Assembly (NCBI GenBank): GCA_964627035.1
Contig: CAZVKN010000005.1
Coordinates: forward strand, 652-64,651
DNA: 64,000 bases
Origin: an uncultured bacterium
Lineage (GTDB): Bacteria; Electryoneota; AABM5-125-24; Hatepunaeales; Hatepunaeaceae
Reading direction: 5' to 3'
In this document: one piece after another, positions 42,296-42,535 of the stretch
Numbering within the stretch: position 1 is the first letter of the stretch
Layout of the letters: every line of letters begins with the position of its first letter
Notes under the pieces: generated by a model
What the model was told of the DNA's origin: nothing
What the model saw: only the letters and a program-made list of their open reading frames with translations
Databases searched by the model: none
Translations under genes and position numbers: made by a program

Positions 42296-42535
42296 GTTAT
42301 ACACGTGATACCGGCGTGGGTCGAGTACAATGCCCCAGCCGCCTTGAAGATTCCAACTCTCACCCGTGTCGGTATCACATGATTTTCGCAGCCTGAATAG
42401 GCGTTATTACATATATAAGTCCCCATGAAGTCAATCCAGCTCCGCCAACCTCCCTGGATGACATAATAAGTGAGTATGTGAACAGGGGACTTCTAAAGCG
42501 ATACCGATACAGATTTTCGGTATCGCTTTTTTTAT
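42296..42535 (+). ncRNA. Candidate structured small RNA (two long hairpins plus an intrinsic terminator) in the etfA-icd intergenic region
   Basis: Hairpin 1 is cacgtgataccggcgtgggt (42303-42322) pairing with acccgtgtcggtatcacatg (42362-42381); three of its four mismatches are G-U-compatible. Hairpin 2 is aagtcccc (42417) pairing with ggggactt (42485). The terminator is aagcgataccga-tacagattt-tcggtatcgctt + TTTTTTTA (42496-42535). No ORF. The icd promoter starts only after the terminator. Confidence 0.45.

Follow-up and report, generated by a model that had tools for sequence, protein, structure and literature searches.

A candidate sigma-54-controlled non-coding RNA gene upstream of icd in an uncultured lineage of the FCB group

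The spacer upstream of icd, the isocitrate dehydrogenase gene, in a 64,000-nt stretch of DNA from an uncultured bacterium of the Electryoneota (contig CAZVKN010000005.1, positions 652 to 64,651; the whole stretch is called the window below) probably harbors a gene of its own. We propose, with moderate confidence, that it encodes a free-standing non-coding RNA of ~0.5 kb on the plus strand, acting in trans as a riboregulator whose synthesis is activated by sigma-54 and an enhancer-binding protein. The original prediction, made from the letters of the window, had placed here an independent, structured small RNA of ~240 nt (42296-42535). That structured sequence is real, and all four of the features listed for it are present with small corrections only; its standing as an independent, non-coding RNA of the plus strand is supported by covariation, by its terminator and by a separate icd promoter. 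Its size and 5' boundary at 42296 were not supported. The conserved promoter, which is of the sigma-54 type, lies at 42015-42029, ~280 nt upstream of the 240-nt element, and because conserved RNA-strand features also extend across the intervening 260 nt, we take the gene to be ~490 nt long and the 240 nt to be its 3' domain. Coordinates are those of the window, and features lie on the plus strand unless stated otherwise.

The 3' domain is strongly structured. Its predicted minimum free energy (MFE) fold, at -76 kcal/mol (z = -4.5), was equaled by 0 of 200 shuffled sequences. The domain begins with a long hairpin (42302-42381) whose base stem is formed by GUGAUACCGGCGUGGGU and ACCCGUGUCGGUAUCAC. 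The 20-nt arms had been described with slightly different coordinates and lie at 42302-42321 and 42362-42381, with 17 contiguous pairs in the MFE fold; the mismatches between them had been described as mostly G-U-compatible, and indeed 80% of the arm positions form Watson-Crick pairs and the rest G-U pairs. The apical region carries C-rich loop 1, GCCCCAGCCGCC (42332-42343); its C-rich segment, GCCCCAGCC, which is the second of the RNA besides the loop of the second domain, has CCCAACCUCCC as its equivalent in one relative (L115). A tentative linker hairpin, GCCU-GAAU-AGGC (42391-42402), follows; it appears in the MFE fold and in the relative L087, and other homologues have different small hairpins at this position. 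The second domain (42417-42492) has the outer stem AAGUCCCC / GGGGACUU, with 91% complementary arms at 42414-42424 and 42485-42495 that enclose an inner hairpin (42430-42462). On this inner hairpin sits a 14-nt loop, CUCCGCCAACCUCC (42440-42453), which is complementary to GGAGGUUGG. An intrinsic terminator (42495-42533) closes the unit. Its stem is a perfect 13 bp (42495-42507 / 42517-42529) with a 9-nt loop and T7 at 42527-42533, rather than the 11 bp and T8 first described, and an automated terminator scan passed over it solely because its loop exceeds 8 nt. Beyond it stands the icd promoter, of the sigma-70 type (TTGACA-N18-TATATT, 42557-42586, 11 of 12 matches), which lies outside the RNA and marks its 3' limit.

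Homologous loci were found by synteny, and the order of their elements was recognized by reading the sequences, first in the relative L007. Exact copies of the icd protein occur on 18 metagenome contigs, and the six marine ones that were fetched have a spacer 100% or 99.9% identical to that of the window. Oxygen-minimum-zone samples are among the sources of the identical contigs (for example SRR8062329, SRR8062331 and the JGI samples 3300009405 and 3300007755). Scanning GTDB species representatives for icd returned only two close relatives, at 78-79% identity, of which L007 is the syntenic one. When the spacer was compared by BLASTN with all fetched loci, only the identical contigs matched, and no match was found in the L007 spacer. 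The envelope protein encoded immediately upstream of the RNA has only 29 relatives among 5.8 billion proteins, one of them labelled Candidatus Electryoneaceae (FCB group); the contigs of these relatives were fetched, and one metagenome scan was run with an alignment of them. Of the distinct loci with enough downstream sequence, 17 could be measured over their full length; another three were measured at the 5' end, which makes 20 in all. Their general gene order is etfB, etfA, the envelope protein, a spacer of 0.8-1.3 kb and icd. The same architecture is seen in L007, L087, L089, L091, L092, L115-L118 and L094-L114, down to 36% identity in the neighboring protein, with the parts kept in one order: activator palindrome, sigma-54 promoter, BoxA-like box, GCAC array, long hairpin, second domain, terminator and icd promoter.

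Conservation and covariation are both evident in these relatives: 16 related metagenomic loci show compensatory changes. Across 17 sequences the base of the long hairpin (10 pairs) is 95% paired, and seven of its pairs carry compensatory changes. Neither its covariation score nor its number of pairs changed on both sides was reached by any of 500 shuffles, and the structure beat every slid control. Since G-U pairs (12 cells) far exceed A-C pairs (1 cell) in this base, the strand of the RNA can be fixed as plus. The inner hairpin and the terminator together (13 pairs) are 91% paired, with compensatory changes in 10 pairs; their covariation score lies above all 500 shuffles and all slid controls, and ten compensatory pairs were reached by 6 of the 500. 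For the outer stem GUCCC/GGGAC, reading of the sequences gave the compensatory variants GUCCA/UGGAC, GUCCUCA/UGAGGGC and UCACA/UGUGA. The terminator is present in 17/17 full-length homologues, with compensatory changes at seven of nine stem pairs. As a blind test, covariance models were built from the relatives only, leaving the window out, and run on the 64 kb. The hairpin model recovered 42299-42382 on the plus strand with 29.5 bits (E=2e-6), against 17.2 bits on the minus strand, and the model of second domain plus terminator recovered 42412-42533 on the plus strand with 77.8 bits (E=1.7e-17). These two matches were the only credible ones in the 64 kb; one other was not significant (E=2.3).

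The promoter assigned to the gene, TGGCACggaacTTGC (TGGCAC-N5-TTGC, 42015-42029), is of the sigma-54 -24/-12 type and is the sole intergenic match in the 64 kb; other sigma-54-like matches (44752, 46541 and 47900) lie inside coding sequences and were rejected as chance. An equivalent, TGGC[AG]Y-N5-TTGC, with the GG at -24 and the GC at -12 that define such promoters, follows shortly after the envelope-protein stop codon in 20/20 loci. Upstream of the promoter is a region of overlapping TGCA/TGCAC half-sites, GTGTGCAACATTTTGCCAC and CTGTGCAAGGCTTATGCAA (41905-41951), whose best palindrome, TGCAATTAATGCAC (41938-41951), is centered ~96 nt upstream of the predicted start. A TGCA-N5-TGCA palindrome precedes the -24 element in 15 of the 20 loci, its start lying 78-80 nt away, and the remaining loci have close variants of it, except for L114, where the palindrome is at -122. 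A TGCA-N5-TGCAC pair at 47021-47043 lies inside a coding sequence and was likewise rejected as chance. A -24/-12 promoter preceded by an enhancer site in fixed phase is characteristic of genes that an enhancer-binding protein activates, the site being expected ~80-150 bp upstream. The palindrome is presumed to be the site of such a protein, and transcription would require it together with sigma-54. The predicted primary transcript runs from ~42040, some 10-12 nt after the -12 GC, to the terminator U-tract at 42533 (~494 nt), and the predicted RNAs of the homologues measure 475-855 nt with their parts in the same order.

Near its 5' end the predicted transcript carries a BoxA-like box, GTTCTTTGACA (42078-42088). 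It agrees at 10 of 11 positions with GYTCTTTAANA, the BoxA consensus of gamma-proteobacteria (PMC5725501), which may not be the consensus of the host. Most homologues have the block YUCUUUGACAU about as far from the promoter, and in several it is degenerate. A promoter scan scored the TTGACA within the box as a -35 hexamer, and TTGACA-N17-TAAAAT (42083-42111) was considered as a sigma-70 promoter of the RNA. Because the matching -10 is not conserved in the relatives and the TTGACA-containing box is, we rejected this candidate and read the box as a BoxA-like RNA signal that may recruit Nus factors. Like the BoxA signals of ribosomal RNA (rRNA) operons and of other untranslated transcripts (PMC5725501, PMC4807359), the box stands near the 5' end of a long untranslated transcript; unlike them, it lies outside any rRNA operon, and the match decays in some relatives. 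An rRNA BoxA of the lineage that resembled GUUCUUUGACA would favor our reading; a literature search on BoxA sequences outside the gamma-proteobacteria was unproductive.

The remainder of the 5' half is occupied by an array of 10 (C)(A)GCAC-N-G units (42115-42263), with two flanking GCAC copies at 42057 and 42288. Ten GCAC occur here within 170 nt, compared with four in the next best segment anywhere in the 64 kb and a mean of ~0.5. Across the 5' halves of 17 loci GCAC is found 173 times and its reverse complement, GTGC, four times. The units follow the logo (C)(A)GCAC-N-G(Y)(U), with GCACGGUU and GCACAGCU as the commonest forms. Successive units most often lie 11-13 nt apart (68 of 156 intervals), a spacing different from the helical repeat of DNA, and only 23% of them have a T immediately before the GCAC. 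So strong a strand bias, together with the non-helical spacing and the position within the promoter-to-terminator unit, argues for a function of the array at the RNA level. In contrast to the 3' domain, the 5' half folds no better than shuffled sequence (z = -0.15). What is expected of a sponge-type RNA, many copies of one short motif, is found here above chance, with a modest gain in accessibility. The motif is neither A-rich, as for Hfq/Crc, nor GGA, as for CsrA. Growth of the array by tandem duplication can be seen in L107 4640-5060 (a ~100-nt module present three times), L110 4520-4650 (a 26-nt unit present five times) and L114 655-750 (a 48-nt duplicate); the number of units thus changes rapidly in evolution, whereas the motif itself persists.

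The most conserved segment of the RNA is the loop motif CCAACCUC (CCRCCAACCUCC), and 13 of 17 homologues present it in a hairpin loop. The C-rich loop is predicted to be unpaired with a mean probability of 0.84, the remainder of the 3' domain with one of 0.38, so that a conserved, single-stranded C-rich loop complementary to the Shine-Dalgarno sequence, as expected of a base-pairing regulator, is present. Among the 31 translation start regions of the window most are without a recognizable Shine-Dalgarno sequence. Strong GGAGG sites precede icd and the genes at 29687-33247, 50378-53524 and 57998-61192, and the best predicted partner of both C-rich loops is the start region of the gene at 29687-33247 (AGGAGGCUGGCAUG). 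icd ranks second of the 31, only through its generic GGAGG. A scan of viral contigs with the C-loop pattern gave 24 matches, none with an associated feature.

The RNA belongs to no described family. Run on the whole window at gathering thresholds, the 4227 models of Rfam 15 gave 0 matches, and at E values of up to 10 the region 41850-42780 gave only a chance match to mir-551 on the minus strand (13.8 bits, against a gathering score of 51). These models presumably include 6S, SRP, tmRNA, RNase P, CrcZ, CsrB/Rsm, Qrr, GlmY/Z, RsaE and the icd-type motifs. The scan thus made no assignment to any known family or cis-regulatory leader, and the original impression, gained by eye, that the sequence resembles none of 6S, SRP, tmRNA and RNase P is borne out by the covariance models. 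On 13 homologous loci, too, Rfam returned nothing in the RNA region, the only matches being two tRNAs elsewhere in L089. Nor is the sequence coding: as had been claimed, no plus-strand open reading frame (ORF) of at least 30 amino acids (aa) lies inside 42296-42535, the open plus-strand frame has no start codon, and no ORF is conserved. Conservation of the two minus-strand ORFs extends no further than the closest relative, whose DNA is itself similar. The RNA was not present upstream of icd in the other phyla examined (Zixibacteria, Melioribacteraceae, Latescibacterota and cyanobacteria), and it is missing after the envelope-protein gene in one GC-rich relative (L101, L112). Members of the family are restricted to one uncultured lineage of the FCB group, in which the neighboring envelope-protein gene is present as well.

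Within this lineage the family varies in form. Long-form relatives (L007 3121-3250, L097 4619-4750, L103 4561-4690, L105, L116-L118 and L100) have an extra conserved insert inside the long hairpin, made up of a CCGGGUAYC loop and the block AACCCGCUGAUGAG, and some of them also have a mid-domain, GCACGGUUUACUUUGAGGG...GCGYNGGUGGCCGG; neither has an Rfam match and neither is found in the window. The CUGAUGAG block of the long-form relatives was considered as a hammerhead or K-turn and rejected, as it has no partner strand to support this and no Rfam match, and is missing from the window. A CGGGU/ACCCG pseudoknot was likewise dropped, covariation giving it no support. In L101 (2650-3260) and L112 (400-1010), the space after the envelope-protein gene holds several copies of a palindromic repeat, GTGCCGTCACATGCCCTCATGTGACGGCA.

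We propose the following mode of action. With sigma-54 and an enhancer-binding protein driving its synthesis, the RNA would appear only in response to whatever signal this protein senses. The BoxA-like box would recruit Nus factors, allowing a long untranslated transcript to escape Rho and to fold co-transcriptionally. The unstructured 5' half, with its ten or so CAGCAC-N-G units, might then serve as a multivalent platform and, much as CrcZ or CsrB does, titrate either an RNA-binding protein or a complementary RNA. The structured 3' half, which corresponds to the 240 nt first noticed, would stabilize the RNA and act as its pairing module, displaying one or two C-rich loops that resemble an anti-Shine-Dalgarno sequence (CCGCCAACCUCC; GCCCCAGCC). 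These loops could pair with the GGAGG-type ribosome-binding sites of a few messenger RNAs (mRNAs) and repress their translation, in the way of RsaE/RoxS. A broader version of the proposal is more doubtful, and we put it forward only as a conjecture: the RNA may define a new class of sigma-54-controlled riboregulators of the FCB group, large ones of 0.5-0.85 kb, in which the periodic array docks a global RNA-binding protein and the loop selectively silences mRNAs with strong Shine-Dalgarno sequences, which are a minority.

Several observations weigh against this proposal. The start, the end and the transcription of the RNA itself are read from sequence signals. Neither rpoN nor a gene for an enhancer-binding protein nor a GAFTGA motif was found within the 64-kb window. 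The GCAC units are only slightly more accessible in the predicted ensemble than their surroundings (0.50 against 0.42), a literature search for a GCAC-binding bacterial protein returned nothing, and we know of no bacterial protein that binds GCAC-N-G. The resemblance to BoxA is good in the clade of the window and degenerate in several relatives. In one subclade (L092, L116 and L118) the C-rich loop is replaced by divergent sequences. As for targets, GGAGGTTGG-like sites occur in the window at chance frequency, without enrichment, and icd was rejected as a direct pairing target, as no extended complementarity to its translation start is conserved across 15 loci.

Other readings of the spacer were considered. 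One retains the 240 nt alone as the small RNA, expressed from its own promoter or processed near 42296, and regards the upstream GCAC region as unrelated regulatory DNA. It is true that the 3' 240 nt fold far beyond chance and the 5' half does not, that a weak sigma-70-like match (CTGACA-N18-TATGTT) lies at 42251-42280, and that processing of a long primary transcript often leaves a stable 3' fragment. However, the promoter match amounts to 9 of 12 positions, and no promoter-like element was recognizable near the hairpin, around 42296, in the relatives, as judged by reading the sequences and not by a dedicated scan. The 173-to-4 bias of GCAC and the constant placement of the units between the sigma-54 promoter and the hairpin fit a single transcription unit, and the 11-13 nt spacing is not that of the DNA helix. 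We consider this reading unlikely. Another view is that the whole region acts as DNA, with GCAC units and palindromes serving as protein sites for the control of icd or of the upstream operon and the hairpins being incidental. The palindromes of the activator region do hold GCAC/GTGC within TGCAC half-sites, but the rarity of T before GCAC shows that the array units are not such half-sites. The compensatory and G-U changes in the stems make sense only in plus-strand RNA, and the single orientation of the units, their non-helical spacing and the terminator hairpin and U-tract that close the unit in every homologue are equally at odds with this view, which we regard as extremely improbable.

Two further possibilities attach the RNA to one of its neighbors. 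It could be a cis-acting leader or attenuator of icd, reached by conditional read-through of the terminator from the upstream promoter. Wherever it occurs in the lineage, the element precedes icd and shares its strand, and icd and icd-II riboswitch candidates are known upstream of icd in Proteobacteria (PMC8632094). Against this, in the window and in relatives the 13-bp/U7 terminator is followed by a conserved promoter, TTGACA-N17-CTATATT, and in L007, L089, L091, L103 and L105 the RNA is retained although 0.1-0.6 kb of unrelated DNA (repeat elements, a small ORF) separates its terminator from icd. The relatives share no alternative pairing that could act as an anti-terminator, the ribosome-binding site of icd lies outside the structure, unlike in icd-II, and the icd-type models of Rfam do not match. 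Since the terminator, the icd promoter and the unrelated inserts insulate its 3' end from icd, we treat the RNA as a separate gene and agree with the original prediction that it is not the icd leader; the leader reading we judge quite unlikely. Alternatively, the sequence might be no separate gene and instead the long 3' untranslated region (UTR) of the etfB-etfA-envelope protein operon, which it follows directly on the same strand with no strong terminator between the envelope-protein stop codon and the RNA. A sigma-54 promoter with a phased activator site right after that stop codon in all relatives predicts independent initiation, and makes this possibility very unlikely, although read-through from the upstream operon could add to the RNA.

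Our preferred reading, a free-standing riboregulator, finds partial parallels in several known systems. The sponge RNAs CrcZ and CrcY of Pseudomonas are activated by CbrB and RpoN. CrcZ is activated by the enhancer-binding protein CbrB, is several hundred nucleotides long and is rich in repeated motifs (PMC5113210, PMC4063720). Like these RNAs, the RNA of the window is intergenic and several hundred nucleotides long, and has a sigma-54 promoter, an upstream activator site, a terminator, several copies of a short single-stranded motif, a predicted role in titrating an RNA-binding protein and a link to central carbon metabolism. It differs in its motif, (CA)GCAC-N-G as opposed to AAnAAnAA, in having no Rfam match, in its phylum, and in its additional BoxA-like box and covarying 3' domain with C-rich loops. 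With CsrB, RsmY and RsmZ it shares a repeated short motif whose copy number varies between species and the logic of sequestration in trans. The motifs of CsrB-type RNAs are GGA in hairpin loops and their promoters depend on sigma-70 and GacA, whereas here a sigma-54 promoter is followed by an unstructured stretch with GCAC units, and again Rfam finds no match.

The 3' domain invites comparison with RsaE/RoxS of Firmicutes, which are much shorter, at roughly 100 nt, and have no repeat array. RsaE/RoxS have C-rich loops and control mRNAs of the tricarboxylic acid (TCA) cycle, levels of which are lowered by RsaE (PMC6158497, PMC8216469). Similarly, the RNA of the window has accessible C-rich loops able to pair with G-rich Shine-Dalgarno regions and lies beside icd; the promoters of RsaE/RoxS, however, are not sigma-54 dependent, and there is no homology between the RNAs. 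The Qrr RNAs and GlmY/GlmZ of Proteobacteria (PMC4152352 for GlmY/Z) likewise have -24/-12 promoters served by an enhancer-binding protein at upstream palindromic sites. They measure 100-200 nt, however, act by pairing or mimicry and lack repeat arrays, and show no similarity to the RNA of this other phylum. The LuxO site, TTGCA-N3-TGCAA, resembles the TGCA-N5-TGCA palindrome of the window. Finally, the icd and icd-II motifs share with our RNA a location upstream of an isocitrate dehydrogenase gene. They are small, cis-acting three-stem junctions of Proteobacteria that include the icd ribosome-binding site (PMC8632094), and the element described here is cut off from icd by the terminator at 42495-42533 and the promoter at 42557-42586. 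Combining a sigma-54 promoter, a BoxA-like box, a GCAC array and a loop resembling an anti-Shine-Dalgarno sequence, which is an unusual combination, the RNA fits no known family definition and forms a new family.

The gene directly upstream had been taken for etfA, but etfA ends earlier (40175-41137) and is followed by a separate gene for a 252-aa protein (41142-41900) with a signal peptide, a weak TPR match and two C-terminal transmembrane helices. This neighbor was considered as an RNA-binding partner and dropped, since the signal peptide and the transmembrane helices mark it as an envelope protein. A WSPK.R motif is invariant in it, and its gene is found between etfA and that of the RNA in every case. 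On the other side, icd most likely starts at the ATG at 42729, in agreement with gene calls on the identical contigs, and its mRNA would be expected to begin near 42593. The TTGACA-N17-CTATATT form of its promoter is kept in the window and many relatives. Downstream of it, the icd 5' UTR contains a perfect loopless inverted repeat at 42627-42652 (GTTTCAGAGCAAA/TTTACACTGAAAC). A 14-nt direct repeat, ATCACACAC(G/A)ATAT, is found at 42264-42277, just before the long hairpin, and at 42704-42717, immediately 5' of the icd Shine-Dalgarno sequence; as a sense repeat joining the RNA to the icd 5' UTR it was rejected, being of borderline significance and not kept in L087 or other relatives. A palindrome-based repeat element, CTGGATTCCCGC...GCGGGAATG, lies downstream of icd at 44157-44188, and repeats of the same type are found between the RNA terminator or icd promoter and icd in L007 (~3690-3960) and L091 (~3860-3980); it looks like a lineage-specific REP- or MITE-like element. 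Elsewhere in the window, 1.38 kb at 2581-3959 holds no ORF of at least 120 aa, only ORFs of 58-111 aa, and may contain small genes or another non-coding element.

To our knowledge, most FCB-group bacteria are without the classic RNA chaperones (Hfq, ProQ and CsrA are mostly lacking), and few conserved regulatory RNAs are known from them. Post-transcriptional control in this group is thus poorly understood, and the family described here gives it testable handles. The type of promoter points to a specific signaling input through an enhancer-binding protein, the repeated motif can be used as bait for an RNA-binding partner, and the conserved C-rich loop predicts targets with strong ribosome-binding sites in genomes where such sites are rare. 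For annotation, the lesson is that an "empty" spacer of 770 bp may be a complete gene with its own promoter and terminator. The hosts are abundant uncultured bacteria of marine, lake and sediment environments, to whose central carbon or redox metabolism the RNA may be linked, given its fixed place with the electron-transfer-flavoprotein operon on one side and isocitrate dehydrogenase on the other.

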